A DNA stretch of 63,702 nucleotides, counting the filler, from Hausera hauseri (lineage: Eukaryota): NCBI GenBank assembly GCA_046269625.1. It is 12 parts of 12 records of this genome, joined end to end, with 100 filler letters (N's around TTAATTAATTAA, not from the genome) between each part and the next. Parts side by side here need not be neighbours in the genome. Positions count along the whole stretch, not along the records: positions 53,925 to 59,302 come from JBJURY010267064.1; 11 more parts are not named here. One strand, given 5' to 3'. The position numbers and the translations under genes are program-made. The notes under the pieces are model-generated. The model made no database searches and was not told the DNA's origin. It was given only the letters and a program-made list of their open reading frames with translations. Numbering within the stretch: position 1 is the stretch's first letter; every line of letters starts with the position of its first letter. Shown here one piece after another: positions 8,961 through 63,702 of the stretch.

Positions 8961-8962
8961 AA

Positions 8963-9142: not shown

Positions 9143-9167
9143 AAAACTACGTCTCATTAGCATTAAT

Positions 9168-9512: not shown

Positions 9513-9658
9513 TATAAACAATGACGGTAAGTATAGGACAGTTCGGCGATATGGGTGCATAGTTTTCATCTATCTGTCTAGGTTTACCGAATCTTTCATT
9601 TACGCTGCGTTCTAACTGTTGTAATACAAGCAAAACCGGCACCATCGATGACAACACA

Positions 9659-10021
9659 ATGGGTGACGTGTGGTTCGACCCGCGTCATCCCGTGGGGTAT
9701 ACTGGCGTCGACAAACTGACAAAGACTGTCAAACAGACTCGGAAACAGACCCAACGTTGGCTCGGGAAACAGTTAGCATACAACCTAAACAAACTGATAA
9801 GAAGGCGGTTTCCAACTCGTGAATACCGTGCTACCGGTGTAAATAACGTATGGCAAAAGGATCTGATGGAAATGATTCCGTACGCCAGCACCAACGATGG
9901 GTATCGGTACGTGCTGACATGCGTTGATATGTTTAGTCGTTTTGCACGTGCAGTTGCCGTGAAATCTAAATCCCGTAAAGAGATTGCCGACGCTGTTCAG
10001 ACACTGATGCAGCAGCAACAA

Positions 10022-10058
<37 letters not shown>

Positions 10059-11805: not shown

Positions 11806-11853
11806 TAAACAAACTGCGTCATCATCATCATCATCATAGTCATCATCGAGATC

Positions 11854-12912
11854 ATGAGTATTTACAAGGTGTTGCCGAGAAACAGTTGTCCGATGACTCG
11901 TCCGAACAATTCCGCCAGTGAATACGTTGTAGACTGGAACAATCCTTTGGATTAATCTGGACAATGGGAGGTTGCACTGACGGTATTTAACTTTCCCTAC
12001 GCACCGGCGACATTGAAAGTTATATGAAAATAACGTACAACAAGACTGTTACTGATACCCAAACACATTCTTGTCCTGTGACACATATTAACAATAAAAT
12101 AACAGTCGGAAAATCGGGCATTTGTACAACCGAAGCAAATTATGGTATATTCGGCGTGATCGGTGTTTTTAGTTTAGATCAAAACTTACATTTTATGGCA
12201 GATTTTGAATTCACTGTTACCTTTGAGTCCTCTGAGATGGCGCAGAAATTTGGATTCAAAAATACAACATACAAAGGTAAAAATATTGAAAGTGAATATG
12301 TAATTGCTTCTAGATTAAGTCCCGTGTATTACAAGACAACGGTGAAATTTACCTATACAACAGAAAGGGTGTCAACGTCATACGTATCGATTGGAGACAA
12401 TGTCTATTGGGAATCGATAGCATATTTCTGTCAACACTTTTCAAGTCAAGACGATATTTAAAGTTTTCGAGTCAGATACAAATGGGTACAATAAATTTGA
12501 AGTGGCTAAAGATATTGTCGATATTTCATTGGACAAAGCTTTGGTCATGGTATTGGGTTTTGAAAAACAACCGTTTGAGTCAAAGACGGCGACGGCACAT
12601 GTTGCAACACTCAAACCCAAACTGAAAACGAGACTAAGTCAAATGTACATTTGCGTGAACGTCACCGAACCGATTTTGGTCGGTAGAGAACGTGTACCGC
12701 TCCTCTGTGCAATTTATCCGGAACGTAGCAAGTATACTGCCGGCGACAATGTCACTGTCAATTTCGATAATCCTATGTACCTACCTGTGGCATGAACATC
12801 TATAAACAATGTTGAAGTAAATATCCGATGTGACGCGGGCTGCCTTACTGAATTTCCGTACGGTAACACAACCAGTCTAACGCTTCAATTCCGTCGAATC
12901 CAATATGATTGA
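11854..12912 (+). pseudogene. Polinton minor capsid (penton) copy 2
   Basis: MSIYKVLPRNS..PNNSASEYVVDWNNPLD*SGQWEVALT ... MYICVNVTEPILVGRERVPLL...FDNPMYLPV...LTLQFRR. Confidence 0.8.
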
Positions 12913-13270
12913 TTCTGAAATCGTATCCATTTACAGTAAACCCCAGCAGGGCGGTGAACTGCCGTATTTCATTGATAAACACTATGGCTCTGGATGGTTG
13001 CGTACATTGTTACGTTTAGCATTTCCGGTGTTGAAGCGTATTGGAGCCGAGGCAGCAAAATCAGCACAGGACGCTCTATATGAAAAGAAGTCGATTTTAC
13101 CATCACTGAAGGAACACGCCTTGTCAGAAATAAAAAGCGCTGCACCGGAAGTCGTTGAATCAGTCAAAAAACAATTCGCTGGCAGTGGCTTGAGAAAACG
13201 CCGTAGAGCATTATCGAGCTTATCAACTATAAACAAAGGTCGTCGTTGTCGTCGTACGATTTTTGATTGA
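12905..13270 (+). CDS. Polinton core/virion protein (QxGG...GSG amphipathic type)
   Basis: QQGGELPYFIDKHYGSGWLRTLLRLAFPVLK...AGSGLRKRRR...TIF; sits in the usual slot between penton and MCP. Confidence 0.75.
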   Translation: MIDSEIVSIYSKPQQGGELPYFIDKHYGSGWLRTLLRLAFPVLKRIGAEAAKSAQDALYEKKSILPSLKEHALSEIKSAAPEVVESVKKQFAGSGLRKRRRALSSLSTINKGRRCRRTIFD

Positions 13271-13277
13271 CAGACAA

Positions 13278-13651
13278 ATGGCATATGCAAAATCTGACTT
13301 GTGTATGTTTTACAAAGGAGCGCCACAATTTGTTATTGACAATGCGGCATTTGAAGAAATTTACCCCGTTGATTCGGTTTCCGTGGCCGATAACATTGAC
13401 ATTCAATTCAACATTATAGCATCATACAATGAATACCTGGAATTGAACGATATGCTACTCTATGTAAAAGTCTTTGTTAAAAAGGATTCATCAACGGTTC
13501 TCGTTGCAACAGACACTGTAACACCGGCCAATTATCTTTTTCACACACTGTTTCAGGAAACTTCACTGACTTTAAACAGCATCAAAATCGAAGGCAACAC
13601 CAGTCTATACAGTATCAAAGCACTCATTGAAACGGCTCTGAATTACAGTAC
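13278..13651 (+). CDS. Polinton double-jelly-roll major capsid protein, N-terminal part (truncated by contig end)
   Basis: KSDLCMF..PQFVI..EEIYP..IQFNI...YLELNDMLLYVKV..PANYLFHTLF...LY..KALIETALNYS. Confidence 0.9.
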
Positions 13652-32791: not shown

Positions 32792-33214
32792 CAGTCATCA
32801 AAACAAGCAAGTGGTGATTACGGTTCCTTTTGTCATACGTTTAACAATTTCAATGTGAAATCAATAACGCTTACGAGAAATGTTGATTTTCGGGAAATGT
32901 ATGCAACGGATTTTACTGATGATAAACAGGATTATACTGAGGCCTATGTGCAATCAATCATTCGTAATGTGGGTATTATAGACAGTGATCGGAATAATGG
33001 TATTACGATGAAGGATTTTAAAGTCATCTATATATTTTTCACTTTTCTATTGGCACCGGACTTTCAAGTTGTTCAAGCACAACTTCCGAATACCGGTAAT
33101 CTGAAATTAGATGTCCGATTTCAGGAAGCTGTAACGGAATCAATTAAAATGTATGCTTATGGAGTATTTGATTTGGAAATTCAAATAACAAAGGATGGTG
33201 TTGTCGTCGTATAG
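32792..33214 (+). CDS. Polinton major capsid protein, C-terminal part
   Basis: FNNFNVKSITL...YTEAYVQSI..NNGITMKDF..FFTFLLAPD...GNLKLDVRFQEA...YAYGVFDLEIQI. Confidence 0.88.
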   Translation, partial: QSSKQASGDYGSFCHTFNNFNVKSITLTRNVDFREMYATDFTDDKQDYTEAYVQSIIRNVGIIDSDRNNGITMKDFKVIYIFFTFLLAPDFQVVQAQLPNTGNLKLDVRFQEAVTESIKMYAYGVFDLEIQITKDGVVVV

Positions 33215-33329
33215 AAAATAAAAAAACAAACGTGCATACCGACTCTACAATAGTGTATTATGAAGTATGTTGTATTATGTTATATAACAACGTATAGTTT
33301 AATTAGAACGTTTCAGATGGATATTATTA

Positions 33330-33645
33330 TAACTGAAAAACAAGGCAGTAAAATATTCAGTTTCATTTTTGCTGGAAAGGTTGCCAGATTATCTACAACC
33401 CGGAGCATATGTTATCAATATCCATTCTAACAATTTACCAGGAGAACACTGAATTGCCATCAGTGTTCGTCATGATATTACTCGTGTATTTGATCCTCTT
33501 GGTATGTATTATCCAATAAAACTTGATACAACATTGGAGAGAATGCAACAAGCGGTGGAGTACAATTCCGTCCAGTATCAGAACCCGTTAACAACTTTAT
33601 ATGGAAATTACTGTATAAATTGACTTCTTACCAGTATCATTGACT
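33330..33645 (+). pseudogene. Adenain-like (adenovirus-type) cysteine maturation protease
   Basis: YVINIHSNNLPGEH*IAI..VFDPLG...YNSVQYQNPLTTLYGNYCI: catalytic H, D and Q present; catalytic C mutated to Y; internal stops. Confidence 0.85.
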
Positions 33646-33693
33646 TTTCGTATTGGTACAAATATTTATATTTTGTAATTGAAAAAAATCATT

Positions 33694-34174
33694 ATGTCAG
33701 TGTCTTTTATCGATTATAAGCGTTTATAGATGAGTATAGTAATTATATAATAAAGAAATTATACATAATAGATACCTGTAATATTTTACAACCAATATAT
33801 TACGTGTTCAAACCTAATTTCCAGTGGTATATGTTATCAACGAAAAACGTATTACAAATATGTTTCTGACCCGTCATCGACATGGTCTTTTACGGAACGA
33901 GGGATGTGGTATACTTGATGTCGAAAATATTATGGGCAAATTAACATCTCCATCACTTTATTATGTCAAATATCATATTAACTGTCAAAAGATAAAAACA
34001 TTAAAGTACTACTTTCCTGGATTACGAATAGTCAATTACAGTGTCAATGCCAATGATCTTATGAATGTTCCTAACAATATCACCTGTCTATGGCACGATC
34101 ATGTTGAACATTGTTCCTACAAAAATGTATACAATCACGTGTTCATAAGTTGCCACAGAAATAAAATTTCTTAA
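33694..34174 (+). pseudogene. Conserved Polinton ORF (DEDD exonuclease-like remnant)
   Basis: YIIKKL...RITNMFLTRHRHGLLRNEG...C-terminal CLWHD..HCSYKNV pattern; frameshifted. Confidence 0.55.
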
Positions 34175-34261
34175 CATATATTTCTTCAATTACTACTTTC
34201 TTTTACACAAAAGTACGTAACGTACTTTTAAAAATTAATACAACTTAACACTAAAATTTTT

Positions 34262-36960
34262 TTGTAATACATATGAATTTGTACATATTCCATCGTCTAT
34301 AATTATTCGTTTATTATCATATTTACTGAGGCTGACCTTTTATATCTGGACTGTTGCTACTGTATGAGCCTGAGATCGGACAGCTTACATTGTGTGCAAC
34401 ATGCATTGTTCTTCATGTAACGGCTTCATAAAATCACCAAATTGTATGTTTTTTAATACAGCACGCTGTACACCCTTTGCACGTTTTTAATAATACCACC
34501 ATCAATCTCCAGCGCATACATTTTCGGTCGAAGGCCAACAAACCGTGTGGTAATAGCACCGTTTACTTCATCTTTAAATATTCCAAGGACTTTTTGTTTT
34601 GTGTTGAATAATTTGGATGGTCCATCGGATAATCATTCGTGTTCATAAATGAAGCCATTTCTCGAAACTCCTCACATATGTCCGATGACTGGATTTTATA
34701 CATGAAGGAGTCTGTGTCCATGTACATCAACTGAAGTCGATTCAGTCCGAACTTCGGTAGCATTACGTTGTAGTGAAATTCATACATGAGTAATTTACTA
34801 ATGTCCAAAATGCACATCCTGATATATATTGGTTCATTAAATACCTGTTGGGTTTCTTCCAAATGGATACTGATGATATTTTCAGAATAAATTTAAGAAT
34901 TCAGGAGATTAGTCTTGGCAATTAGGTTTTTTGTCCTTTTCCAATCATGCACCAGTTATATGTGCTGCCTATTTCCGATATTCTCCATGGTTTTTCCAAA
35001 TACAGAATAATTGTACAACTTAAATTGATCCTTTTCGAAATTTTTTTTGTCTCGTGTTCGTTAATCTTTATTGAACTGAATGTATGGCCGTAATTACGTG
35101 GACTGACTCAATTTTATTTTTCGATTAATATTCGTAATTTTTAATCAATATTTGATTGCCTGTTGGAAAAATTGATGCAATACTACATATTTCTGTCGAC
35201 CAACGAGATGGGAAATTAATTTTTTAATTTTGTTGCTTGTGCTTTCCCGTGGTTTCAATGTTACCGGTAGAAATGGTAACTCATCATGTTGTTCATGTAA
35301 AGTTTCAGGGTAATCAATATCCACTTTAAATACGTCACCAGTTGATGCAGTTTGACTTATATTGAGTATGTCTTCATCCATGTTTCCGGTCCATGTCATC
35401 AATTTAAAATCTCCGTACGGAAAATAATGCAACATTGCCCAACCGTACAAATTATTTGCACCTAAATATGTAATATACACATCCGGCTGGTTTTCTTCGT
35501 GTTTATCATACATATACTTGTTATTCGCAGCTGAATATCGATGTACGACTTGACATAGACATCCTCTTATTCAGTTTTCATCCATTAACAGCATATCGTA
35601 ATCCTTTAGTATTTGCAGCTTAATCTTGATCATCTTTAGCATTGCGCTACGTGCCATTCCTGGTGCTGTGAAATGATAGGCTGGATCGACTTTGTGTGGA
35701 ACCATTGTTACTGCACGAAAACTTTCAAACACATCGGTCAATATTAAAACATCGGTCTTCAAATATATGTCACTGTATTAACCGAGGTTTTCACAATTAA
35801 ATGCTTCCAATACTTTTTGTGCATGGCAGTAATCTTCATCTGACATATTTGATTGACAGAAGGAACTGAAAAATGCCTCTTTCTGCGGCAGTACTCGTTC
35901 TTCCAATTTTCTCCAGTCGGTTATGTATTCGTATGGGAATATACCTTTCCGTTTAACCAAACTGTACAATCGATCATCATCAAAGTGCCACATGGTTTCC
36001 GTAAATGCATCTGGCGGTAGATTTCGTGCCAGTTAATCGAGACTACTGCATATGAACTTAAAATTATCGGCGAACCGCAATTCAATATAACCCGCATGTT
36101 TCACAATCGTTATGTACCTTTCTTGATTATGGGGGATTACAATTATACGACCTTGTAATTCACCGAGTTCTCGAATAAAAAAGTGCGAATCGTATCCATA
36201 TAAATTGTGAAATATCACTGGGATAAATCGTACCCGTTTACATACCAAATTGCAATTGTATTTGAACTCGGTATTTTCCGGTAAAGTGGTCATGACTATG
36301 TGCCTTGTAATTTTTTTCCGTAAATGTATTTTCACACACGTAACACACTGTTGCTTGGTTGTGATGTTCTCTTTCTTTCTTCCGTAATACTTCCACAGGT
36401 TTATTAGCCATTATTTCTACATTCACGGCAATTTCCTCCAACTTCTTTATGAATACTGCTGCTGCATTCGGTCCTCGGTGCAGAAACGGTTCTTCGCTGT
36501 AACCTTTTGCAAACATACAAAACCATGTTGGTTCATGTATGTGTTATCATTGTAGAAGACTGACCGTTTTGTGGATTACATGTATGCACTGGTTGTAACT
36601 TGGCTTAAAAATCACAGTAAATTACAATGAGAACACGTATTGTTTTTTCGTATTCTTTAAATTCTGTTTTTTTGAATAGTACAGCTTATGCTGTTCCAAT
36701 TTCGTTTTACCGTAGTAGTGCATTAAACATCGTTTGCATATAAGATAAGCGGCTTTTATTTCTGTATATATGTGCCTACCAATCTGCTGCAATGAGAAAT
36801 GTATACAAAATGACTTTTATCTTCATCACTTATCAACAACAAATCTCGGTGATCATCATTTTCTTCTTCACAGATTTTCAAAGGATATATTTTCCTTGTT
36901 TCCTCTTCTATACCGAATACATTGATTGACATATTATTATTGACCTTTTCAAAAATTTTG
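34262..36960 (-). pseudogene. Protein-primed family-B DNA polymerase (pPolB) with endonuclease-VII-like insert, decayed
   Basis: FEKVNNNMSINVFG, CYVC..HDHFTGKYR, IPVIFHNLYGYDSHF, RKGIFPYEY, KTDVLILTDVFESFR, ANNLYGWAM..PYGDF, SVFGKTMEN, ILDISKLLMYEFHY, YMDTDS, FVGLRPKMYA. Confidence 0.95.
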
Positions 36961-39129
36961 AGTAAATCTTCATTCTCCTGATAGTAGATATTTCCTCTAT
37001 CCATTTTATATTTATTTTTGCTCCCCTCTTTGTTTAGACTATTACGAATTTTACGAACTTCTTCATCCTTTGCTTGTTCTTTGGCTATAGCTTCGTGTGT
37101 AATTGGCATGGTTAATAATATGTACATCTCTTCGTTGACTTCTGCATTGTGTACTTCATATATCATAATCTGAATTAAATAAATCATTTTGTAGTCTTGT
37201 GTTTTACATTTCCTTGATTTTATTTGTTCAATGTTTGAATAATCATACTTATTAGTTGATCGGTATCCTTTGTGCATTTATTTCGTATTGATTTGGGTAC
37301 ATCTAGATGAACTTTCTGCGAATAATATTCCTTTAGGTCCTGCATATCATCGTAATCAAAGTTGATATGGTCGTTATGGTCTTGATAGATGTCACTTTCC
37401 TGAAGTCTTGATAGAAAGTCTGCGTTAGCGTTTGCTTTTCCTTATCGGTATTTTATTGAAATTTCTAAGTCTAGGATTTCTGCAGCCCATTTCATTAATT
37501 TTCGGCTGGTATCTCGTTGTTTCCTTAACCATTGTAAAGGTTTCTGATCAGTGTATTGGATTAATTCTCGTCCAGTTACATAATATCTGAAATATCGTAA
37601 AGCATATACTATCGCGTAACATTCTCGCTCGATTGTTGACTATCTACTTTGTGTTTCGCTTCATGTTTTACTGAGACATGCTATTGTTCCTTCACGTGGT
37701 GTGTCAGGAACCGATTGTCCTAAGACTGCACCTATAGCGTAACAGATGGCATCGGTCATTATTATATAGGGATATTTGGGATCAGGAAATTGTAGTATTG
37801 GAGGTGAAGTAAGAACTTGTTTTAAAATCTCAAATGCTCTCTGATGTGTTTCTTCAGAATTTTATGTTGTTCTTTTCTTAGTTAATTTTACTAGTGGTTT
37901 GACTATACGTGCAAAATTATATACGAATTTTCTATAGTAGTTAGCCATTCCTAACAGTCTTTGCAATTCTTTGAGACATTTAGGCGATCTTAATTTCTTT
38001 AGTTTCTCTACATTTATAGGATCAGGTTGAATTCCTTTACTTGACATTACGTCCGAGGAAAATGAGAGTATTTTTAGCAAATTCACATTTTTTCAACTTA
38101 ATTTTTAAATGAGCTTGTTTCAGTCTCTCAAATACTTGTGAAATGTCATTTAAGTGCTGTTCGAAGTTTTCGGAAAATATTATAACGTTATCTATGTACA
38201 CCATACAACAAGTTAGCCCTTGCAATACAAACTTCATACATCTTTGGAATGTAGCGGGTCCTCCTGTCAAACCAAAAGGCATAGCATTAAATTCCCATAA
38301 TCCATTTCCAGTAGAAAAGCTGTTTTTTGTTTATCATCTTCGGCAACTTCAACTTGCCAAAATCCGCATTGTAAATCTAGGGTGGCGAATATTGTGTCAT
38401 TTCGTAAGGCCGTAAGCATCTCATCTATCTTTGGTAATGGATAATTATCTTTCTTTGTGACATTATTTAGTACCCTAAAATCTACACAGAATCTTTGTGC
38501 TCCATCCTTTTTCTGCACTAATACTACTGGAAATGTCCATGGTGAGAAACTTTGTCTGATAATACCGTGTTTAATTATTTGTGCTATTTGTTTATCGCAT
38601 TCTTGTTTCTTGACTTCAGCCATTCAATACGGGTCTTGTTTAATAGGATTTGTGTTCTCTGCGATTCTATGATATTGAATAACGTTAGTTCTACCGATGT
38701 CATTTTCATTAATATCTATAATATCTCAATATTTGTAAAATAGTTGTAGTAATTGTTTCAATTGATATGAGGTTAATTCGTCTTCTTTAAATTTGATATT
38801 TTCATCTTCTACTAAGAACGTTGCTGCACATATTTTAACTGGTTGTAACCGTCCTAAGTTGAGGTTTTGCCGTAATCTAATTGCCTTTTATTGATACTTT
38901 CTATTGGCAATTCTAAACAGTGTACTCCTTTTGGCACAAATAAGGGATATTGTAGAATCTTATATTTTTTGTTATTATGTAGATTTGGTTCGAACATGCA
39001 GGTTTGCTTGTGGTATTGCGGTGGTATTGTGACCATCACCACTACTCGTTGCTGGGGTTTGATAATAACGTCATGAGTCAAGGTCATGTTGATTTCCTCA
39101 ATCGGCAAATTGGTCATCGTGTATTTAAG

Positions 39130-44592: not shown

Positions 44593-47500
44593 GCGCCAAA
44601 ACTTTTAATCAAAGAATATGCCGAATTTTTAAGGACAAGGCCCGAAGAAGTAATTAGAGTAAAAATAACGGCGGACTGGATGGATGAAAAGGAACAAGAA
44701 TTCACTACACACTCCTCTGTAAAGGATGTATTACTGTGGATAAAGAATAATGGATACGCCCATGAACTAAACTATAGACTCTATTTTAGAGGAAGGATAC
44801 TGGACGAATCGGAGTTACTGATAGAAGTTTGAATTATTCCAGACGAGATAAATCGATTAGTGGTGACCATAGCTATCGACGAGACAAACGAAGAGGCTAT
44901 AAGGAAAGCTAAAGCCGAGCAGCAACTAGGACAAATAATAGGAGTCCGAGATGCGGTAGTATATTTCGAGTACTTACAAACAGGTGAAGATAATGAGCAA
45001 TACGATATGTATTTAGTACCCCTTACTGATAACACACCTATCGTAACAAAACAGAAACGTCCGATCGGTAGACCGCGGAGGGTACGAGAGGAGAACGACT
45101 ACAATGGAGACCTGATTAAAGAATTGAGGCAAATGTTCATACCAACCTTCAGTGCAGATAATGAGGAACTGAACGAACTAATGAAGGATTTGATACGAAT
45201 AGTAAGCCACTCCAACCCTGACGGTGATATGTTAAATAAGAAAGAGAAGGCCATATTTAATGCAGCCAAGGCCATGAAAGGCCTCCGGTGCAAAGTAACC
45301 AAGAGTACCTTAAGTGATGAAACGATAATTGAGAAAATTATGGTAGAAAATACCATGGAGAAACTGAGGAAGGTGTTGCTGTATCTGGCCATCAAAATTA
45401 ACCCGAATAGAGAAAACTAATTTAACAAAGCAACTAGCTTAGCAAGGAAGGCCGCTAGGAAACTGCCTCGAGAAGTGGACTAGACGAAGTTATTTGAAAA
45501 AGAAGAAGGTCATCAAGCTAGACTTTCCTTCGATAGCAATAGATTCGGAGACCTGCTACGAAATCTAACTGGGAATTACAGAGGAAATGAATCGAATTGG
45601 TTAATAAACTTTCTGGTCATGACGATATTGATAAAACAAATGGGTGCAGTCACGGTATATGATTGTGACAAATTTAGACTTGGATAAAAGTACTCACTAA
45701 TGGACTTGGAAATGTGAGGACGCGAGACCACACAAATTAGAAACAAAAAAAGAGTTACGTATTATACCAACAACGTAAACTAATTGCATTGGATGGGGTG
45801 GAATGTATGTTGCGACGATCTCTCAGCATCTTTCATTGTGGGCTGATACATGGACACTCATCAATAATCAAACCGACGACTCCACCAATTCCGATTAATT
45901 TTGAACGACAACATTGTAAGCAAGCAAGAGAGACGGGAAGAATAAAGTGGGATGGCATGAAACTAGAGATACAAAAAGAGAAAATAGTCAGAGTATGCAA
46001 AATAGCAGTCGGAAGGCTAGACATGCACACGGGACATTGCCAAGGTGCAGAATACGATACCGGAAAGGGATTAGAGCCGAACGTCGTAGTAGTAGATTTT
46101 TATGAAACTAAAATGCGAATGCAGAAAGTGGTGTTCCTTAGTGTTACTAAGCTTTACACCGAGAACCACAAATGCCATATTCAGGATGGCACGTGCCCAT
46201 TCCGGAATTCCGTAGTAATTTGTGAACCTCCAGCCAAGACTGATTGTAATTTTATTAGAATTAAAGAACTGAAATTCAACGAGACAACGGGAAAACGATA
46301 GATAAGTAGCCCGGAAACTAACTCTAAAACGCGAGAGAATGTGACCGAAAAATCCACACCTACAATACTGATTTCTGACGATCATGGATTAAAATTTATA
46401 AAGAAAGACATGCTCTCTAGATGCGACGTCGTAATGTATGCTACCAATTACAAAGCATTTTTTGTAGCCGAGACAGAAATAAACGCCAGAACGTTCAAAC
46501 TCGAGACTCAGGACATCCGGATTAAATACTATTTGAAGAACAGAGATGACTATTTCTACTATAAGAAACAAGCCGGAATAGCCAAATTATACCGTAAAAT
46601 GATAACAAACGACTGTAAATTGGATTTGGAAATCATGAGAACTAAATTAGCTCTAATATATGCAAATCCCGAGTTGGCATCACCAATAATTCCGATGAAG
46701 GAAGGTATTTTTGGACGAGTAACCGAAGAAGTATTATTGACGTATGAGTGCGAAAAGAAAGACGTACCAATTGACGTGGAAGAAAAGAGGTGTATACAAG
46801 AACTTCCAGTGATATATCAGGACGTACCGAGATTAGTAACACCAATTACCAGAGTGCTGTTGGCAAACGCCACTTTACCGACAATTTTGAGAGATTGCAA
46901 AACGACTTTAGGAGAGCCAATGTTCAGACGAAGTGAGACTAATTGGGTGATTCTACCAAACGGTAATATTATCGCACCACCTACCAAGTTGACAGGAACA
47001 AACCTGATAAAAGAAATAACCGATGATAAGTTCCAGGATACAGCCGCAAAAGGTATTTATCGACCAAAAGTAGTAGAGGCATTTAGACAATTTCTTGCTT
47101 TTCCCTGCCAACGTACCCATGAATTAAACAGAGCGATGTATACAATATTAGAGGATTCGCGCTGTCAGTTAAAATGGGAGTCATTGCTTGGTGTTGGCTA
47201 TTATAAAAAGGTAACTACAGAAATTTTATACAAAATTTGGGGAAGATTCCTAATATTCGGACAAGCTGCATCAGGATTTCTAGCGATATACTTTCTAATT
47301 CAATTGGTAAAAGCTATAATTTAGTCAATCATAAATGGATATGAAATATTTACCTTTACATGATTTTCTTGCAAAATTTTAACGGCTATTATCATTCCTT
47401 TTGGCAAATTTTTAAAGGATTATGAAGAGAATAAATGGAAAACAAATGTAGAACGACACGTTGGCTATCACAATAGGAAACGTAAAAGACGCCTAATTGA

Positions 47501-53924: not shown

Positions 53925-54017
53925 CCTGTGGAATACAATAACATTATGTATCAAAATCCATTAACTACGTTGTGTGGCAATTACTGTATAGAATGGCTTA
54001 TGTGCCAATATATGTAA
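53925..54017 (+). CDS. Adenain-like cysteine protease, C-terminal 30 aa with intact catalytic Cys (truncated by contig start)
   Basis: PVEYNNIMYQNPLTTLCGNYCIEWLMCQYM*; 17 of 21 residues identical to the Polinton protease at 33555-33617; AATAAA at 54021. Confidence 0.85.
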   Translation, partial: PVEYNNIMYQNPLTTLCGNYCIEWLMCQYM

Positions 54018-54122
54018 TGAAATAAATGTATTTTTATGAAAAATGGTCTTCATTTTACTACTTATCATATTTTCATTATAGGGGGAAATTAAACAACACA
54101 AATTACGTAATAATCTACTTAT

Positions 54123-54413
54123 TTACATGAATTTTGGGGTATAATTGAATTTGATTTTTTTTGTTTCTAGTAATGCTAACTTGGTATCGACCACAGAATC
54201 TTGTGTAGTTACTTGGATATCACTGATGAAAATTTGAGTATGAACGATATTGAGGTATTGTTCATAATTAGCAGTATATAATGTTGACGATAGATTTTCT
54301 AATAAACGGCTTGTACATATTGCTTTAGAGTAGATTGAATTTAAATTATAGCATATGTTTTCCATAAAGCAAAAAGAGTGAACAAATGTAGTAAATAAAT
54401 AATGAAGAGACAA
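54123..54413 (-). CDS. Hypothetical protein downstream of Rep
   Basis: 96-codon open frame between the Rep stop and the convergent protease; start uncertain. Confidence 0.3.
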   Translation of the reverse strand: MSLHYLFTTFVHSFCFMENICYNLNSIYSKAICTSRLLENLSSTLYTANYEQYLNIVHTQIFISDIQVTTQDSVVDTKLALLETKKIKFNYTPKFM

Positions 54414-54442
54414 AGGAATCTATATTTAGTAACAAATTTTGC

Positions 54443-55843
54443 CTAATCAGCGTCACGTGATTGGCTGGTTGATGCAGCCGCCCAGGCCTGAGTCACTGGG
54501 TCTTTGTTCAATGTAAGCCTTATCCTTTTCTTGGCAATTTCTTTTTGGATATCGACGTTGTTTTCGATGAGGAATTGATTCCTGTTGCCTTTTGAGTCAT
54601 AGAGCATTTGCTGCCCACACTGATAAATTTTGAGACGTTTAATACAGGCCTCTTTTTGCAATGGGTCCATTTTTATGGGCCAAAAATTGTTTTCTGAATT
54701 GTAGGTGAAAATAAGGGGGATCTTTGACGGAATCACCACACTTTTGTAAAGCCCCCGTATGGATCTAAATTATTTTGAGTCAAATATTTAAATTTCAATT
54801 GTACCTGTTATCATTTGCGTGATTGCATTGAATGATTGCGAGGAATATGTCTGGGGCTACGTCGTGGAATCCGACGTCATCAAACACTATTAGGTCATAT
54901 TCCCCTGTCCAATCATAGGGGCAGCCGTGCATGGAATGTAGTATCAAAGGGTTTTTTCCATGACTCAGTGCGAAACTGGTCTTCCCGATGTTAGAAGCAC
55001 CAAATAATATCGCACTATTAATCCCTTTGTCCGGTTGAAATTCAATAGGTGGTATCAGGAATGTGTAATTATTGTTTGCCACATATTTTTCTCGAAATTT
55101 GTTCCTGATGTAATTATTGAGCAGACGGTTTTTAGTCACGTATTCTGCTCTGTCCCCATCCTTCATTATTTCTAGGGCGTGCTGTATCGTGGGCGCCTCA
55201 TCAAACATTTTATAAATTGCTTTTTTCGACGTATTATCTTTGAAGATATTTATGGGAGGCGTGCCCATCGATACAATTAAGGCATTTTCGAATGTCTTCT
55301 TGTAGTGATATTCGTATACCTAAATTGAATTAAATATGCAATAAAAGAAATTTGAGTCACTTTTAATATATCACATCTGAATGGGAGCACCCAACATCCC
55401 AATATTTTGACATAAAATTGCGTCGGTAGGGTATGGGTGTATAAATCAATACGTGTAAATGATGGAAATTGTTGCTGCTTATTTCCTCTTGCAGCCTTAT
55501 GAACCATTTTCTTTTGAGGTAAAGTGGGGTATAAAATGACTCAAAATAATATCTGGCGTCCATGTCTGCATCTAGTGCATGGACAAGCATAAAGTGCCTG
55601 AAGGTAGCACTTCGTGGGGGCATTGCTAAAGTTCGTACATTGTCAGGGAATTTATTTTGCAATGCTGTGAACGTATTTTCATCGAGCATCGTATCTTTAA
55701 ATAATGGGACGTCGATTTCTGACAAACAATGGAAGTTCCGTTTGTACTGGCTAAAGGAGGGGGGAATATTATGCAAATAAAAAAAATTATACATACGTGT
55801 TCGTTGTATTGCCAGCATTAATAATATTTATATTATTTTCCAT
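54443..55843 (-). CDS. rep: CRESS-DNA-virus-type Rep (HUH endonuclease + SF3 helicase), 419 aa, exons 55843-55797, 55750-55375, 55319-54805, 54764-54443
   Basis: Removing three GT-AG introns (46, 55, 40 nt) gives a stop-free 1260-nt CDS with motif I (FMLVH), motif II (EEISSNNFHHLHVLI), WDV..SHSD, motif III (YHYK), Walker A GASNIGKT, Walker B IVFDD and motif C IFTYN. Confidence 0.88.
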
Positions 55844-55903
55844 TATTTAAAATATTTCGTTGCGAAATTCAATTTGAAATGTATTTAAATATTTATTTTC
55901 AGA

Positions 55904-56296
55904 TTTGAGTCAAAATAAAAGTAAAAGAAATTGAGCCGGCTCAAAATAAATATAACAGTTTAATGAGCCGCTCAATATATGTGTGTATGTTTGCGTGCAT
56001 GCATGTTAAATTATCTGCATAGTAACAGTCAATGCATTATTGATTTATTTTAATTGCTTCTCGGACTGCCTGTGTAAATAGTGAATGGGTTTGAAGTGGG
56101 TACTTGAGCGACGGCCGATAATTACCCGACGCTGCTCGGGTCTTCAATGCATTTAGTTTGTTCGGCCTTTTCTATTGATAGTGTAATGTCCGAGACCCTA
56201 TACGATCGGTATAGGCTCGGAATTACATTGGCTCAATTTTTATTTGGTTAGTCAGAAATGTTGGCTCAATTTTAAAGCCTTAAAAAGTGGCTCAAA
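55904..56296. promoter_or_regulatory. Candidate replication origin / Rep-binding region: iterated TTGAGCC/GGCTCAA palindromes and a hairpin
   Basis: TTTGAGTCAAA 55904; perfect palindrome TTGAGCCGGCTCAA 55931-55944; TGAGCCGCTCA 55964; GGCTCAA at 56230, 56263, 56289; imperfect hairpin 56182-56227. Confidence 0.5.
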
Positions 56297-56613
56297 ATTT
56301 TAAACTATTATTATTATATTTATTTGAATTTTTTTTTGATAATATCCGCTACGAACGGTATGTAATTTATTTTATTTAATTGTAAATATTAATGTAAGGA
56401 CGATACAACCTTCCGGGTTATCTTGAGCTTTATATATTTCTTCTTTCTGTATAAATATTAACTTTACTCATGAACTAATCATTTAAAGCACAATTCCAGT
56501 TATATAAGTAATCAAATGTTAACTTTACTGTTGAATTACTAAATACTTCTTACATATAAAACAAAACCAAGACAAAACACATAAAATATTTATTTACATT
56601 TATCTACAAACAG

Positions 56614-57816
56614 TCAATCATAATAATATTCTGTTACGACTTTCTTCACCAACCTTCTTTCATGTTGGTGCTGCTGCGATTCTGTTTGTATCTCCTTCTC
56701 TTCTTTTTCAACCGCTCCCACTTGAATTTCCTTCTCTTCTTTTTCAACCGCTCCCACTTGAATTTCCTTCTCTTCTTTTTCAACCGCTCCCACTCCTTTG
56801 TCAAATTCAAATGTTTCTATCAAAACTTCTATCCCTCTATTTGTTTGGGTACCTTCCTCTCGTCTTCCTTTTTCATCCTTCCGTACCTTTGCTAATATAA
56901 CTGACTGCCTCTCAATCACCTTCTGGTAATGTTTATTTTGCGTTGATAACTGATCTTTTTCTTTCTTCATTTCTTCATATTTCCTTTGCAATTCTTCTAA
57001 TTCCTTTTTCCAATCAATCTCCTTTGCTTTCTGCTCTTGCGCCTCCTTCTGCTCTTGTTGTACCTCCATCTGTCTTTGTTGGGTCTCCTTCTGTTGTGTC
57101 TCCTTCTCTTGCACCTTCCTTTTTGATCTGTATTTCGAAGCGCTTATCTAAATTTCTGCGCCATTTCTTTTCGCCAAGATTGTCCATTTTGATAGAATCC
57201 AGAGATTCATCTGGATTAATTTCCTTCTTCAACTTATTTCTTCTTCTTCGTTCACAGTCATTCATGCACTTATCCAGGAATTTTGTACGTATTTCGATAC
57301 GTTCTTGCGTATTATTCGCATTTCTTTCTTCCATCGCTAATTTCTCTTTCCGCTGCTTGGTCATTCGAACCTTGCAGCTTGATGGTGGAATTATTCTTCT
57401 GATCTTCTTTGATGGAATAAATTCTGATTCCATGATGAAGTCATCGTCATCATCTGATTGTGTTAGTTTTATGTCTTTGCGGACCTGCTTTATCTGTGAT
57501 TCCTAACAAATTAAATATATTATAAATGTATACATTATTACTGTAACTCCTGCATCTATATCCACAGGCTGCATTGTAACTTTCTTACTACATCCTGGTT
57601 TGTCTAAAAATGAAATATAAATTAGCTTATAAAATAAAACTAAATCTTACCAAGTTTCTTGCTAATTTCCACCAACTCCTGTGTCAGTGTAGGCTGATAC
57701 ACAGGAGCGTCTTTCGGCACTGAAGGCATATATTCGCAACCTTCTTTTCTCTGCTGCTCCAATGCAGCTACAATCAGGTTTTGTTTGTCTTGTTCCGTAA
57801 AAATGATTTTGGACAT
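56614..57816 (-). CDS. Spliced coiled-coil protein with tandem (T/I)Q(T/V) motifs; exons 57816-57651, 57603-57542, 57502-56614; one frameshift near 57120
   Basis: GT-AG introns of 47 and 39 nt join MSKIIFTEQDKQ... in frame to ORF 57014-57433; the charged frame continues in ORF 56614-57114; upstream TATA (~57852) and two CCAATCAGATT boxes (57870, 57886). Confidence 0.7.
56694..56793. repeat. 36-bp coding tandem repeat, ~3 copies (VGAVEKEEKEIQ)
   Basis: ccttctcttctttttcaaccgctcccacttgaattt repeated. Confidence 0.95.
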
Positions 57817-57904
57817 TGTAAAATAATGTCAAAATAATGAAAGACACTAGCTTATATAACTAATTTCATCCAATCAGATTTCGACCAATCAGATTACAGA
57901 CACA

Positions 57905-58125
57905 CAACATAGACACATTAGTTTTAGCTTAACAAAATATATAGTTTATTTAAGTATTGCCTTATAATAACACAATATAGACACTTTAGATTTGTCTTAA
58001 CTATTATATAGAACATTTAAGTATTGTCTTATAATAACACTGACACATTAGATTTTGTCTAAACTATTGTCTTATCATAAAACTGACACAATAGTTTTAG
58101 CTTAACATATTATATAGAACATTTT
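57905..58125. repeat. Imperfect AT-rich tandem repeats between viral genes
   Basis: gacacattag/gacactttag/gacacaatag x4; ttaagtattg.cttataataacac x2; tattatatagaacattt x2. Confidence 0.75.
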
Positions 58126-58243
58126 ACTTTTGTACACTACATTTTGCTTCACACATTACATTTGTCAAAACAAAACTATATATATATATTCACAAAATAC
58201 TTAAACTAAAAGAAAAATATAAGCGAAAACAAATAAAATTTAT

Positions 58244-58603
58244 TTAAATGTCAAACATATCGAGAAATCGCAATCCTCTAAGACAACCTACCATATTGCC
58301 AATCAGTGCATCTAATTTGTTGCACTTCTCGACATCATTGGTTTCCAACCAAATATTAAACATTCTATTTGTTGGATTGAAAGTGAAACTTTCCACTTGC
58401 ATTCCGTTGAAAAATTCTTTGTTTAAAACAATTTGAAACTCCATGTCTTCGGGTAAATACATGGCTTCCACTTTAATTCGGATTCCGATATCAACCATTT
58501 TCCACTTTCGTAACTTCAACTGGAATCCGAAAGCCATGTCATTATCAATAACAGGGAATTCAAACTGGTCTTCGTTCAGATTCATAATAATTTCTGCTGC
58601 CAT
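58244..58603 (-). CDS. Hypothetical 119-aa protein (virus-like ORFan)
   Basis: Clean ATG-to-stop ORF with globular composition; TATA-like box ~40 nt upstream. Confidence 0.6.
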   Translation of the reverse strand: MAAEIIMNLNEDQFEFPVIDNDMAFGFQLKLRKWKMVDIGIRIKVEAMYLPEDMEFQIVLNKEFFNGMQVESFTFNPTNRMFNIWLETNDVEKCNKLDALIGNMVGCLRGLRFLDMFDI

Positions 58604-58849
58604 TGTATTGCTTGTAATGACAAAGGAATGACAAACACTACCTTATATATATAAATTTAATGAACCGCAACGTAATATATTGTTACATTGTGGATTATTC
58701 TATTGTCTTCATTACATTTCCTTCTTGATTAATCAATACACACACAATGTATTATCCTACATTTGATTGGTTAAAATTTTATTGGATAAAATTTAGTATA
58801 AATAAAGTGTTGAAATCATTTTAATTCTCTTTCAAAATTCAATTTCAAA

Positions 58850-59302
58850 ATGGTATAACTTTTATTCTTTTTACATAAGTTCTTATTATTTATTTAGATT
58901 TGCAACTTTAACTATTGCACCAGCGATGTGCATTCGTCTGTGACATGTGAGGAAAACATGTCGAAATATTATTGTGTGAAAATAGATGGACAACAGTTTT
59001 ATGTTTGTCCATCCTGCGAGATCATCTCCGGTCTCACATTCCCAGGTTTTCGTCAGAATCACCAACATCATCTGACGTACTTTACAAAACCCAAAAAGAC
59101 AATTGTTCGAGACCATAAAGAAATGATAAACTTGGCGAAACAATTTGTCATGGAACAACAAATACCATTCCAACAATCAGCAAACCAACAATCAACGTCC
59201 CAACCAGTTAAACAGACAAACAAAAGGACACAGAAACAGCCTAATCAGACAGTGAAGAAACAAAGACAACAAACTGTAAAAAACACAAAACTTAATGTAC
59301 AA
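58850..59302 (+). CDS. Spliced Cys/His-rich protein (putative Zn finger) with Q/K-rich tail; exons 58850-58852 and 58898 onward (truncated)
   Basis: ATG|gtataac...tttag| (45-nt intron) joins in frame to ICNFNYCTSDVH...CPSC...HQHH; TATAAATA at ~58797; reversed CCAAT boxes at ~58766 and 58781. Confidence 0.65.
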
Positions 59303-59402: not shown

Positions 59403-60252
59403 CAGGCCTTGGCCAGCAGATCCATCACCCAGGGCAGACCCTGCTTCTTGCGGCTGACAAAGCCCGGGTGGTAGCTGGACTCGGCCGGTACTTTGGCGTG
59501 CTCGGTAAAGTAGATACGGCTGGCAGCCGCAGTCAGGTCAGTCACCATCAACACGAAGAAGTCGAGCCCTTCACTCGTCACGCGCTGGGCCATCTCCTGC
59601 TGCAGGGCTGGCAGGTGCTCGGCCAGCTGCTGCTCGCTGCCCACTTCGATCTGGCTCATGATGAAGTTCAGACCTTCGGCCTGGAATGCTTTCTCATCCT
59701 GCTGCAGCAGTTGAGCCGGAGTCAGGCCGCTCAGGTCGGTTTTCGCCATCAGCAACTGTTGGCCGAATTCGGCCAGCGATACTTCTGCCAGCGGTGCCAG
59801 ACGCTCACAAGCGATCTTGTCCTGCTCGGTGGTGGTCGGTGAGGTGAGACAGAGGGTGTCGCTCATGATGGCACCCAGCATTAGGCGAGCCTGGCTGCGG
59901 GTCACGGTACCTTGCTGGCTCAGCAGATCGAAGGCGATGGTGCAGGTGCAGCCGACGGCCCGGATCCAGGCATCCAGCGGAGATTGGGTGACCAGAGTGC
60001 CGAGACGGTGGTGATCCACCAGGCCCAGTACATTGGCTTGTGCCAGTGTGGCAGGGCCCTGTTCCAGATCACTGAAATCCACCAGCCAGACATCTTCACC
60101 GGTCAGATCTTTGGTCAGCAACTCGGGTTCGCTGACGCCAGCCTGCTCCAGAATAAAACGGGTTTCGGTGCGCAGGTCACCCAGACGCCATGGGGTGGCC
60201 TGACGGCCCTGGCCATTGAGCCAGTCGGTGATAACCAGCGCACTGCAGATAC
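59403..60252 (-). CDS. ppaC: Bacterial Mn-dependent inorganic pyrophosphatase (family II, DHH/DHHA2), lacking the first ~15 aa
   Basis: ICSALV, ETRFIL, LVDFSD, VDHHRLG, VGCTCTI, GAIMSDT..SPTTT..D, SRKKQ; GC-rich gammaproteobacterial-style codons; no lesions. Confidence 0.93.
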
Positions 60253-60259
60253 ATCCACT

Positions 60260-62935
60260 TCTTCTAATCCCCAAAACCAATAAAGCTGGCGGAAACTACG
60301 GCAAATTCTGGAAGAGGCAACTCCATACGACTCAACTAACACACATCTAGAAACACCGTTTTTTACTGGACGCTGCAATGACAACGTCTCCACATCACAC
60401 CAAATTTCTCATAGATTCAGGTGCAGCTGTCACACTCTTACATTTATCCTTCAACTTATCAAAAATATATTCAACGTCAACTAAACTTTTCACCGCCAAC
60501 AATCAGGCCCTATGTATTTCAGGTACCACATAAATCCCCTTCACTTTGCCACAGTTTTAGACATTTTTAAATGGAAATTTATAATTTCAGATATTCAGAC
60601 TTCAATATTAGACTCCAAATGTCTATTACATTAAAACTTACTGGTCGACCGTAGATAGTGTAGTGTGATCAAATATACACATAACAGTACCACCCCACTT
60701 GTTGCACAGCTGACTGTCATGCCGAAGTTTATATTAAAAAATTCTAAAATAAAATAAATTGAATGTCGACAATGCTGATAGAGATAATTCCATTCATACC
60801 ATCACGCCGATTTTCACCGCAGATATAAACCTGATTTTTTAGCTTTCATCGCTATCCATGCAACTAGATGTAGCTCCGCGAGACTACGTAACCATATCGT
60901 GTTCCGGAACTGTTTAATAGACCCTAATTTTAAGCTTTCTTTCACGACTTATCGTCACATCGTCAATGAACACCAGAGACCAATAAAACAGAAAATTTGG
61001 CCACTTTCTCCTTACAGACGCAAAGCTGTAGAACCGGAATTCAACGAATTAGAAAAAGCCTGCATCACAAGGATGTCTAAATCACCATGAGCCTCACTCT
61101 TATATGTCCTATGGACCTTGTGGCGACTACTTCCAAGTAAATAACCTTACCAGCGTTACTTCTCATAAAGGACATCCTGATAGCTTTAATAATACCAACA
61201 CGTATTCCACAATTGATCTGCACAAAACCTACTATCAAATTCCCGTTACACCTGATGACATTCGATAAACTGCCAATATCACTCCATTTGGACCTTATGA
61301 ATACATCTTCATGATATTCGGTTTACGCAGTGAATCCCAAATTTTTCAAGGTCACATTGACATGGTGCTTTCAGGACGTGATTTCGTTCATACCTATATC
61401 AACGGCATATTAGCCGCTTCTGCTTCCAACATCATGAACACCTTTGAATTCTCTTCCATAAGTTACACCAATAAAATTTACAAGTTAACCTTTCCAAATG
61501 CCACTTCTTCCAAAAACGTGTGAACTTAGGTCACATTATCACTTCTCACGGTGACTCTCCACAGCATGATCGAGTACAGCAATTAAATAACGTAACTTTA
61601 CAAACCACTACCACGGACATGAAAAGTTTCCTAAGCACACTTTACTTTGTGCACAAATACGTGCCACATTGTTCCGAATTAACGGCCCTTTTGCACATCT
61701 TTCATCTAGAAAGTGGAAGCAACTAATCCACTGCACTCCTAAGTTGGTCAATAAATTCGACCACTTACGCGAGAGCTTAAAATAAGCCGAAATCCTAGCA
61801 CGTCCAAAATTGGAAGCAGAACTAGTAATCACCACACATGCCTCTATCACAGCTGTTGGCGCAATAAACCACCAAGTATTCAATGACAACAACCACCCTC
61901 TGGAATTATATTCTTGCAAACTCGCAGCACCGGAACGCCGTTACTCAACTTTCGACACAGAGATTCTAGCCATAATACTCGCCTTTAAACACTTCTCGCA
62001 TCTACTAATCGCCAGGTCTTTTACAATCAAAACAGACCATAAACCATTAACTCAAGTAATGGACGTGAAGACACCTTTATCTCGACAAGAACATCACATA
62101 TCGTATTTGTCGACTTTCAATTATAAAATAACTTATATTGCAGAAACAGATAATCTAGTTGCTGATTTTTTATCCCCATCAGTCACCATCTTTGGAGTTT
62201 CGCCTATTTTCTTACAGACAGTGATTAAGCAAGATGTGCCAAAGCACGACGCTCCCAAATCTTTCAAATCTTATGAGATCATGGACAGAAACTCTAATGA
62301 CACATCTAAACCCGGTAAAAACAATGCAATACTTTCTTCACTTTTGCAGAAAATTGCACTTCACAGCTTTTACGCGTTTTATTATCCCAGTGCAAAAACA
62401 ACTTTCCGTCTACGACGCCGAGTAGTATGCCTGTCGATACACTGAGACGTACAGGCTTGGGTTAAGGAGTATGTGTCATGCTAAAAATTCAAAAACCAAC
62501 AAGCATCTGAAGGCACCACTAGATCACTTCCCCTGTACGTCGCGTTTTCAGTCCGTGCATATTGATCTAGTCGGCCCTCTTCGTTCAGACAACGGCCATC
62601 AGTTCATACTCACAATGATGGACTCTTCTTCCATTACGCTCCACTAACACAGACACAATTGCTGAGGTTTTTATCAAAACTGAGATCAGCAGATTTAGTT
62701 TACCTTGTTTAATAATCACGGACCAAGGTCCACAATTCGAGTCAAATCCCTTTAAAGCCTTAGTCAACCGCTTGGGGATCAAACATATACACACTTCTCT
62801 ATATAATCTCAAAGCAAACGGTTTATTGTAAAGATTCCACCGCACAATGAAGACCTCACTCCAAATCCGTGCTGAATCAAACACAAACTGGATAACTATC
62901 CTTCCTCTCCTCTTGCTCGGTTGGCAGACTTCCAC
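60260..62935 (+). mobile_element. Decayed CsRn1/Kabuki-like Gypsy pol (same family as 4390-7620)
   Basis: FLIDSGA, PCGDY, FGLRS, YSTFDTEILA, TDHKPL, HIDLVGPL, TDQGPQFES; collinear with 4750-7480. Confidence 0.9.
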
Positions 62936-63640
62936 AGTCATATTCGCACTTTCCCAGTCCCTGGTGAGACACACTATTCGTCGCACACACATCTCACCTC
63001 CGCTGCCACCATCACACTGCGCCGCATGCGGGAAAAGAGGGAGCAGGACAGGGGGGGACCTTACTTTGTCTTTCTTCATCTCGGCGTGAGAAATGACCGA
63101 TAGATGTGTCACCTGAAGTGAAAGGCCTGACACCTGAAACATCGCGGCCTGATTGCTTCTCCTTCTTGAGCATCTTTCTGTGTCCATCATTCATCCTGCC
63201 ACAATCTGCTGCTCCCTCCCTCAATCTGCCTCGCTCTTCCCTCGCAATCTGTTTCCTCTCCCGCAAAGTGCTCAAACTTTGTCATCTGTCTCTCTCCCTC
63301 CCTCTCCCTGTGTTCTCTGTGCTGTTCCTGGTCTCAATCATGAGGACATCAGATCGTGCCATATGGCTCACGCACGCCGACACGGACGCGAGCCGCACGG
63401 CCCAGGTGCATGGAGGCGCCGCGTTCCGCTAATGACGCCGGAGTCGGCAGCTCGAGATGCTAACGCAAATCAATAGGCAGCACGGCCCAGCGATAACAAT
63501 CTCCGTTTCTCCTCTCCTCCCCGCATCTCTCCATTCCCTCATCGATGCTACGCCCCCCCTCCTCCTCCTCCTCCTCCCTCACATCCTCCCTCACATCTGC
63601 CTTGATCTTGCAGGTTCAATCTATCTCTCCCTAACCCTCC

Positions 63641-63672
63641 CACACACACACACACACACACACGCACACACC
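63641..63672. repeat. (CA)n microsatellite within GC/pyrimidine-rich sequence unlike the rest of the window
   Basis: cacacacaca run; (cct)n at ~63560. Confidence 0.9.
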
Positions 63673-63702
63673 CGTCTCCGTGCCCTCAATCTCACATACT
63701 CT

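Follow-up and report, generated by a model that had tools for sequence, protein, structure and literature searches.

A contig from the genome assembly of Hausera hauseri combines the 3' end of a putative Polinton-type cysteine protease with a gene for a replication initiator (Rep) of the type found in circular Rep-encoding single-stranded (CRESS) DNA viruses. It is one of 12 contigs that, joined by N spacers, make up the 63,702-nucleotide (nt) stretch of DNA analyzed here (the window). The whole contig, 5378 bases with 33.5% GC, occupies positions 53925-59302 between two N spacers, and these bounds agree with a first-pass annotation of the same DNA. We favor, with a probability of about 0.5, the reading in which the contig corresponds to the variable middle of a single copy of an abundant Polinton-type element and Rep, with its hairpins and repeats, is a passenger replicon cassette of a minority subfamily; the host genome is probably that of an animal. 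The passenger reading is preferred because most protease-bearing copies carry neither the Rep nor the hairpin, and copies that have lost most of Rep are no rarer than those keeping it. The joint presence of a Polinton-type protease end and a CRESS-type Rep in one young element, proposed in the first-pass annotation, is real; the replication-module swap that it also proposed is a separate matter and the less probable reading.

A probably spliced Rep gene and its putative origin

The part of the contig from the protease through the putative origin contains the following features.

53925-54017, plus strand: 3' end of a Polinton-type (adenain-like) cysteine protease; 29 codons and two stops, cut by the contig start, belonging to a high-depth family
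54443-54764, minus strand: last Rep exon, with SF3 motif C and arginine finger (profile positions 275-333, E 9e-13)
54765-54804, minus strand: candidate 40-nt GT-AG Rep intron, with one TTGAGTC repeat inside
54805-55319, minus strand: Rep exon with motif III (YHYK), Walker A (GASNIGKT), and Walker B (IVFDD) (E 2e-33)
55320-55360, minus strand: candidate 41-nt Rep intron, containing one TTGAGTC repeat
55361-55750, minus strand: Rep exon with HUH motif II (HLHVLI) (profile positions 23-87, E 0.2) and an apparent frameshift between motifs II and III
55751-55843, minus strand: candidate first Rep exon (ATG at 55843) and predicted 46-nt intron (55796-55751; GTATGT donor), in frame with the next exon
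55900-55980, no strand: repeat-rich palindrome upstream of Rep, with TTGAGYC copies and a hairpin at about 55930-55976 (z -6.25; 0 of 200 shuffles)
56106-56137, plus strand: weak candidate nick-site stem-loop, its 11-nt loop ending in a nonamer-like word with one mismatch
56174-56236, no strand: long hairpin, the best origin candidate (z -5.53; 0 of 200 shuffles)
56230-56295, no strand: three direct GGCTCAA copies at the end of the TTGAGYC array

A profile of 73 relatives was run over all 2671 stop-free fragments of the window. Three minus-strand pieces ranked first and were collinear, covering profile positions 23-87, 115-276, and 275-333. Two of the matches were strong (55319-54798, E 2e-33; 54769-54446, E 9e-13), and the HUH piece (55827-55366) reached only E 0.2, albeit in the right order; the Rep of the first-pass annotation is thereby borne out most clearly in its SF3 part. 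The last two pieces abut in the profile (276/275), as the 40-nt intron predicts. The complete SF3 set (Walker A, Walker B, motif C, and arginine finger) is present, as is the YxxK of HUH motif III, in which Y4 and K7 are invariant across the six-row alignment A2. HUH motif II is visible and collinear, although hhalign recovered motif II only, with a probability of 1.9%, and motif I is unclear. The leading Atlas match of the HUH exon (0.82) was to Viral_Rep/Gemini_AL1 clusters.

The candidate Rep introns of 46, 41, and 40 nt resemble those of the neighboring ORFans (47, 39, and 45 nt); all were predicted from sequence, each chosen among several GT-AG pairs. Use of the 41-nt intron puts the window's Rep copy out of frame in the interval from motif II to motif III. 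An alternative 55-nt intron starting at 55374 keeps the frame, at the cost of a weaker donor and a shortened stretch. The remaining breaks in Rep mostly fit short introns. Thus, where a single frameshift had been reported for the contig, two are apparent, one in Rep and one in a coiled-coil open reading frame (ORF), and at both places the window sequence departs from that of contigs in other runs (X1 in the case of Rep; the runs are introduced below). The window's own copy therefore appears to be slightly decayed.

A phmmer search with the middle exon against 1.84 billion proteins yielded 73 relatives at E ≤ 1e-3 (best 4e-10; 24 to 46% identity), and Viral_Rep or Gemini_AL1_M domains were found in 18 of the 23 that were scanned. 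In a quick tree of the middle exon with 72 of these proteins (P0058, with no Walker A match, was excluded), the Rep formed a long branch (2.01) and was placed nowhere. Related loci numbered 44 in IMG/VR and 21 in metagenomes, on small CRESS- or crucivirus-like contigs; all 44 of the former and 20 of the latter lie on contigs of 1.4 to 6.9 kb. None of the 65 loci matched the window's Polinton pieces or an adenain-like motif. Searches with the single Rep exon confirmed no relatives in IMG/VR, and among 65 pattern matches in prokaryote genomes none was confirmed. A Rep helicase of the same clade was found at 9836-10648 of L059, a 58-kb metagenome contig; it has no nickase domain and an altered Walker B (profile E 1e-42), and none of the six ORFs around it matched Pfam. 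This locus looks like another capture of such a Rep by a larger DNA element.

No capsid-like ORF was detected in the contig with Pfam or with tblastx against the 65 related loci, and Rep is flanked by other genes on both sides. Since it shares the intron style of its neighbors, comes without a capsid gene, occurs as variants in common flanks, and has no visible empty site, Rep looks built in rather than freshly inserted. Its G+C content at third codon positions (0.43 to 0.50) differs from that of the neighboring genes (0.27 to 0.41) and of host genes (0.29 to 0.30).

The protease end is the contig's only strong match to the rest of the window (tblastx E 1e-7). Its counterpart is the ORF at 33555-33629 in a decayed Polinton piece at 32792-37300 (the reference Polinton), with which it shares 17 of the first 21 residues and 18 of 25 aligned residues (72%). 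The earlier description of an intact adenain C terminus holds for the 17/21 identity and the stop-terminated frame; the name adenain finds no support in the libraries, neither copy having a Pfam or PDB protease match. This label rests on the 72% match to a Polinton ORF, on position, and on what we take to be the catalytic motif. An exact 26-base search of metagenome contigs with the protease end found none, and no protease relatives were confirmed in IMG/VR. Rep does lie on the minus strand, as had been described, but does not face the protease directly, an 80-codon ORF (54365-54123) lying between them; the reference Polinton likewise has an ORF (33818-34174) between protease and polymerase.

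The spacer upstream of Rep is palindrome-rich, as first annotated, with two hairpins that no shuffle equaled. The long hairpin is kept in variant and Rep-less contigs even where the spacer at 56140-56190 has been replaced, and 55924-55952 of the palindrome is retained in the Rep-less contig. TTGAGYC, a pattern read from the data, occurs 10 times in 54592-56295 (0.35 expected; at most 3 in 300 shuffles), compared to no copies in the rest of the contig and 17 in the other 57 kb of the window; the copies lie upstream of Rep, in Rep exons, and in two introns. A second word, TGA(C/G)TCA, has 7 copies in 54410-56320 (0.16 expected), and in 200 shuffles no 7-mer with at least three G/C attained 7 copies. 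The TTGAGYC repeats are preferably read as putative Rep-binding sites; alternatively, they could be AP-1-type sites of the host, judging by what we take to be the AP-1 consensus. The nonamer-like stem-loop between the hairpins folds no better than chance (z -0.56; 50 of 200 shuffles fold as well), and the canonical nonamer TANTATTAC is absent from the contig. Variant contigs rejoin the window at 56139-56140, by this stem-loop. Farther upstream, a short block (56398-56431) is far deeper than its flanks, and sister contigs flank it differently.

These features suggest how the cassette might work. Rep would be made from a spliced message with host-style introns of 40 to 46 nt, bind the TTGAGYC repeats, and nick at or near a hairpin. 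Copying started from the nick could then amplify the cassette locally or move it between sister elements by recombination. The expected outcome would be diverged Rep alleles in common flanks, spacers replaced between kept hairpins, and Rep-deleted, repeat-keeping forms served in trans, with the family as a whole copied by a pPolB polymerase that is encoded outside the contig or supplied by other copies.

Depth contrasts and variant copies

The stretch is present as assembled contigs in three public runs from three studies (X1, X2, and X3); X2 bears a different organism label, and X1 is possibly the source sample. Contigs were matched to the window at 96% and 80% likeness, with 4296 (X1), 561 (X2), and 156 (X3) matching at 80%, indicative of many diverged copies that are known from contigs alone. 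Depth was summed over contigs and does not give copy number, so that large contrasts alone are meaningful.

Depth is very high at the two contig ends and at the promoter (57705-57884) and low in the middle. At 96% likeness, the protease bin reaches summed depths of 201,559 (X1), 3,737 (X2), and 149 (X3), compared to 47 to 56, 3 to 7, and about 0, respectively, for Rep. Dividing the X1 protease depth by 31, our correction for overlapping short contigs, still leaves a contrast of more than 100-fold. In X3, where most of Rep is uncovered and depths of 2 to 3 are uninformative for it, single contigs have depths of 96.9 (protease) and 173.8 (54173-54204) against 2.6 to 3.1 in the low-depth middle. 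Because the family to which the contig ends belong is at least 30 to 100 times deeper than the Rep stretch, most protease-bearing copies must lack this Rep. The bin of Walker A and B rises only to 154.5 in X1 at 80% likeness, so there is no deep pool of near Rep relatives. Loose contig ends occur at 54204 in all three runs, and the meeting of a rare middle with common ends would account for the assembly break.

Alternatively, the low-depth Rep stretch could have been wrongly extended in assembly into a member of the high-depth protease family across common repeats, in which case protease and Rep need not be adjacent. In none of the three runs does a single record reach from protease to Rep, just 24 letters lie to the left of the step at 54204 in the X1 record that crosses it, X2 leaves 54219-54316 uncovered at 96%, and X1 may itself be the source sample. 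However, X1 contigs tile 54181-56427 with 0 to 3 differences and a single 1-base gap between two records, X2, from another study and organism label, bridges 54369-54816, and in a sister contig, with 51 letters on each side, the protease end continues to 54097 and farther. Moreover, the 80-codon ORF is open across the step, and even an erroneous join would lead into the same family. We consider a false join quite improbable.

X1 holds three Rep variants, about 80 to 85% identical, with depths of 14.4, 22.9, and 28.8, that align over hundreds of bases with 0 to 6 gaps. The variant of depth 14.4 ends where the window contig branches (54449), and the sum of 55.5 (window Rep) and 14.4 approximates the 69.6 of the common left flank; this variant appears to share the flanks of the window copy. 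In another contig (depth 14.8), the sequence on either side of 56140-56190 is retained, whereas the middle is not. Finally, one contig, with depths of 134.7, 10.5, and 2.3 in X1, X2, and X3, joins 54410-54436, 55513-55563, 55924-55952, and 56179-56203 in collinear order, including 51 bases of Rep exon and two repeat sites. Its three joints were found in X1 and X2, and the first alone in X3. Judging by the order of these segments, it is a probable Rep-deleted form that keeps the repeats, and the depth of copies lacking most of Rep equals or exceeds that of any Rep-bearing copy. At 54410 and 54458, two variant contigs end or depart from the window sequence, as sequence divergence by itself might produce. 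The idea of an independent Rep transposon bounded by 54410 and 56211 is weakened, because no empty site was seen and 54410-54460 doubles as promoter of the 80-codon ORF.

The variants bear as well on whether Rep is a dead or inert endogenous CRESS fragment that was inserted into a Polinton copy and then propagated along with that copy, the hairpins and repeats being leftovers of a viral origin. The composition of Rep is unlike that of the host, the window copy is frameshifted, Rep-deleted forms exist, and capsid-less endogenous Rep genes are common in eukaryotes according to the available text of PMC3198968. An inert fragment is nevertheless unlikely, given at least three variants at about 80 to 85% identity with 0 to 6 gaps, one of them in apparently identical flanks, repeats distributed through exons and introns, three host-style introns, and intact motifs.

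Passenger cassette or replacement of the polymerase

The contig stops within repeats at both ends, the ends do not overlap each other, and the ends of the element, with any terminal repeats or target-site duplication, lie outside it. Within its 5378 bases, cut at both ends, no pPolB, rve integrase, major or minor capsid protein, or packaging ATPase was detected. Because the contig ends inside repeats on both sides, the absence of pPolB does not amount to an observation.

Several findings weigh against a passenger. Rep is tightly built in: the adjacent gene has its promoter overlapping the last Rep codons, and Rep has three candidate introns that match the three of its neighbors. In X1, the depths of the window Rep and its variants (47 to 55, 14.4, 22.9, and 28.8) sum to 113 to 122, close to the 115.6 of the coiled-coil contig, which weakly suggests that every copy of the subfamily has one Rep. 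The slot after the protease is the polymerase position in the reference Polinton, and no pPolB in cis turned up in the contig, which is cut at both ends. No empty-site joint (about 54400 to about 56200-56400) was found at 96% or among the joints listed at 80% (15 of 19 were listed at 80%, and all 3 at 96%). The joints of the Rep-less contig have 25 to 29 nt per side with unread letters between and are flagged as unreliable, and the splicing, binding, and nicking ascribed to Rep are all predictions from sequence.

These points lend themselves to a second reading, namely, that Rep and its origin truly replaced pPolB in the subfamily, producing an adomavirus-like or Rep-driven element with Polinton virion genes. 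There would then be a Polinton lineage with a spliced HUH and SF3 Rep and a repeat-and-hairpin origin in place of pPolB, comprising autonomous Rep-bearing copies, exchangeable Rep-origin alleles, and Rep-deleted, nonautonomous partners. On this reading, the contig would represent an entire "early" arm, made up of the origin and four minus-strand genes, between a divergent promoter (58604-58849) and a terminator (54020-54120), the capsid arm being missing because it is repetitive. Consistent with this layout, one minus-strand block converges on the protease and a plus-strand gene starts at the other edge; furthermore, all catalytic motifs of Rep are present, the variants keep hairpins and flanks, and the depth sum fits one Rep per subfamily copy. 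Precedents include an AdintPa adomavirus with adintovirus-like virion genes and RepE1, adomaviruses with a CressRep, and the helicase swaps of group 2 Polintons. A swap nonetheless seems less likely: depth in both end blocks exceeds that of Rep and of the long hairpin 30- to 100-fold, which leaves most of the family without either; the contig ends show no overlap; the CressReps of adomaviruses belong by eye to a different Rep class; and group 1 Polintons, to which this element may or may not belong, are reported to retain pPolB and integrase uniformly. In support of a passenger, Reps whose Walker A and B signature is by eye the same occur as auxiliary genes of parvoviruses that keep NS1 and, without a nickase, in L059; the small contigs of most related loci and the third-position G+C content of Rep point the same way.

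Pairings of this kind are less new than the first-pass annotation claimed: adomaviruses with CressRep and AdintPa, Rep-bearing virophages, and Polintons with a helicase in place of pPolB are in print. No spliced CRESS Rep with an origin within a multi-copy Maverick-Polinton-type family was reported in the literature searched, a search outside of which most subscription journals lie. Adomaviruses are believed to unite Rep-type replicases with virion genes like those of adintoviruses, and uptake of a rolling-circle initiator by a Polinton is a step that was not found in the same literature. In the present family, copies with Rep, with a variant Rep, and probably with Rep deleted occur together. 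Even if it were cargo, a Rep that brings its own origin into a Polinton family, has host-style introns, and carries a binding-site-like repeat in its exons and introns would be an unusual nested replicon; if the swap were true, the family would be a living intermediate between Polintons and adomavirus-like circular viruses.

The available text of PMC11071296 describes adomaviruses with a CressRep (-Ress) and Adomavirus tegillarca5526 (AdintPa) with adintovirus-like virion genes and RepE1, and these resemble the contig in joining a Rep-type replicase to adenovirus- or adintovirus-like virion genes in invertebrate data sets. Among the CressRep entries listed in its supplement 2 (at least 22), 7 are from adomaviruses, 15 from parvoviruses, and none from adintoviruses. 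As far as these sources extend, the -Ress adomaviruses differ in having a Xeno late region and, by eye, a Rep of another class, and AdintPa differs in its RepE1; in a comparison by eye with the 7 adomavirus CressRep entries listed, the contig Rep falls outside the RepLT, RepE1, and adomavirus CressRep classes. The comparison with cressdnavirus and adomavirus replicases that had been suggested thus separates the adomavirus Reps by eye, whereas the tree places nothing. The contig also differs in that its protease is 72% like that of a resident Polinton, the element is a multi-copy family, and, of what could be a circular double-stranded genome with a late operon ending in adenain, only the protease end is present.

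With Maverick-Polintons and adintoviruses, as described in the accessible portions of PMC8502044 and 10.64898/2026.06.19.733378, the element shares a putative cysteine protease and its multi-copy nature. In the latter source, as far as available, group 1 Polintons are uniform, keeping pPolB and integrase, and group 2 Polintons swap pPolB for SF1 or SF3 helicases, which, unlike the contig Rep, are fused to a polymerase or primase and are not HUH nickases. Captured Reps retained beside another replicase are also described in the text at hand: the Parvo3071 group has an auxiliary CressRep, with a Walker A and B signature like that of the contig Rep by eye, beside its own replicase NS1 (PMC11071296), and poxviruses, avipoxviruses among them, retain captured cressdnavirus Reps beside their own polymerase (PMC10193959). 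Compared to these, the contig Rep has origin-like hairpins, repeats, three candidate introns, and a probable deleted derivative. Gulliviroviridae virophages have been linked to circovirus Rep-like nickases (10.64898/2026.10.13.758929), and HUH genes occur in Mriyavirus-like groups (10.64898/2026.06.19.733378); these are mid-sized DNA viruses of the double-jelly-roll type with a rolling-circle initiator, which, in the portions available, belong to other capsid lineages and are mostly aquatic and protist linked, not Maverick-Polintons of a multicellular host. The nearest Rep relatives, unclassified CRESS and crucivirus-like viruses of IMG/VR (L001-L044; 23 to 54% identity over the best segment), have small genomes with capsid genes, whereas the contig Rep is a long branch.

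Helitrons, Replitrons, and a geminivirus-like transposon of Tuber resemble the cassette as Rep-based mobile DNA of eukaryotes, possibly with nonautonomous forms (available text of PMC3198968). In the same text the Tuber element has a transposase and terminal inverted repeats, and no insertion site was found for the contig Rep; Helitrons have an SF1 Pif1 helicase (available text of PMC11296320), compared to SF3 in the contig Rep. Replitrons, to our knowledge, carry no helicase.

Neighboring genes and other contigs of the window

Beside Rep, four ORFans were found, rather than the three first described.

54123-54365, minus strand: 80-codon ORFan convergent with the protease; its terminal portion, as far as about 54204, lies in the high-depth block and the rest in the low-depth stretch
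56614-57816, minus strand: spliced coiled-coil ORFan with 36-nt repeats; candidate introns at 57650-57604 (47 nt) and 57541-57503 (39 nt)
57830-58160, no strand: promoter of the coiled-coil gene (TATA and two CCAAT-type boxes; high depth), followed by direct repeats
58244-58603, minus strand: 119-amino-acid ORFan, beta-rich with a C-terminal helix in a low-confidence model (mean predicted local distance difference test score, 45.5)
58604-58849, no strand: divergent promoter region, with TATA on both strands and two CCAAT-type boxes before the plus-strand gene
58850-59302, plus strand: cysteine-rich ORFan in a high-depth block, truncated where the contig ends; a candidate 45-nt intron follows its ATG

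The low-depth part of the 80-codon ORFan contains no stop codon (among 2000 shuffles, that frame was open in 29 and any frame in 67), the frame reads openly across the depth step at 54204, and a CCAAT box lies about 100 nt upstream, overlapping the final Rep codons. The coiled-coil ORFan has one apparent frameshift near 57120-57150 and no Pfam match above the cutoff; a near-identical contig is present in X1 at a depth of 115.6. Between it and the 119-amino-acid ORFan, which matched nothing in Pfam or Atlas, lie imperfect direct repeats of 43 to 68 nt (57902-58160), units of which are skipped by contigs of other runs. The divergent promoter region includes a 40-nt inverted match to the coiled-coil gene promoter. 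The cysteine-rich ORFan, with summed depths up to 75,403 in X1, had no relatives confirmed in IMG/VR.

The remaining contigs of the window carry intron-poor, AT-rich host genes, long terminal repeat (LTR) elements, and two decayed Polinton pieces. Besides the reference Polinton, the piece at 8705-13651 has an rve integrase (Pfam E 2e-7) and ORFs that resemble core, penton, and capsid genes, without a match to the Rep contig. The capsid and pPolB labels of both pieces are presumptive, taken from motifs as we know them, without a Pfam match. At 59403-63702, a GC-rich ORF (59405-60295), which we take to be similar to a bacterial manganese-dependent pyrophosphatase, is joined to an AT-richer LTR-retrotransposon region, reflecting either a chimeric assembly or gene transfer. 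Finally, LTR elements at 46302-47321 and 3761-4264 carry an F-type viral fusion glycoprotein (PF24664; E 4e-33 and 2e-9, respectively).

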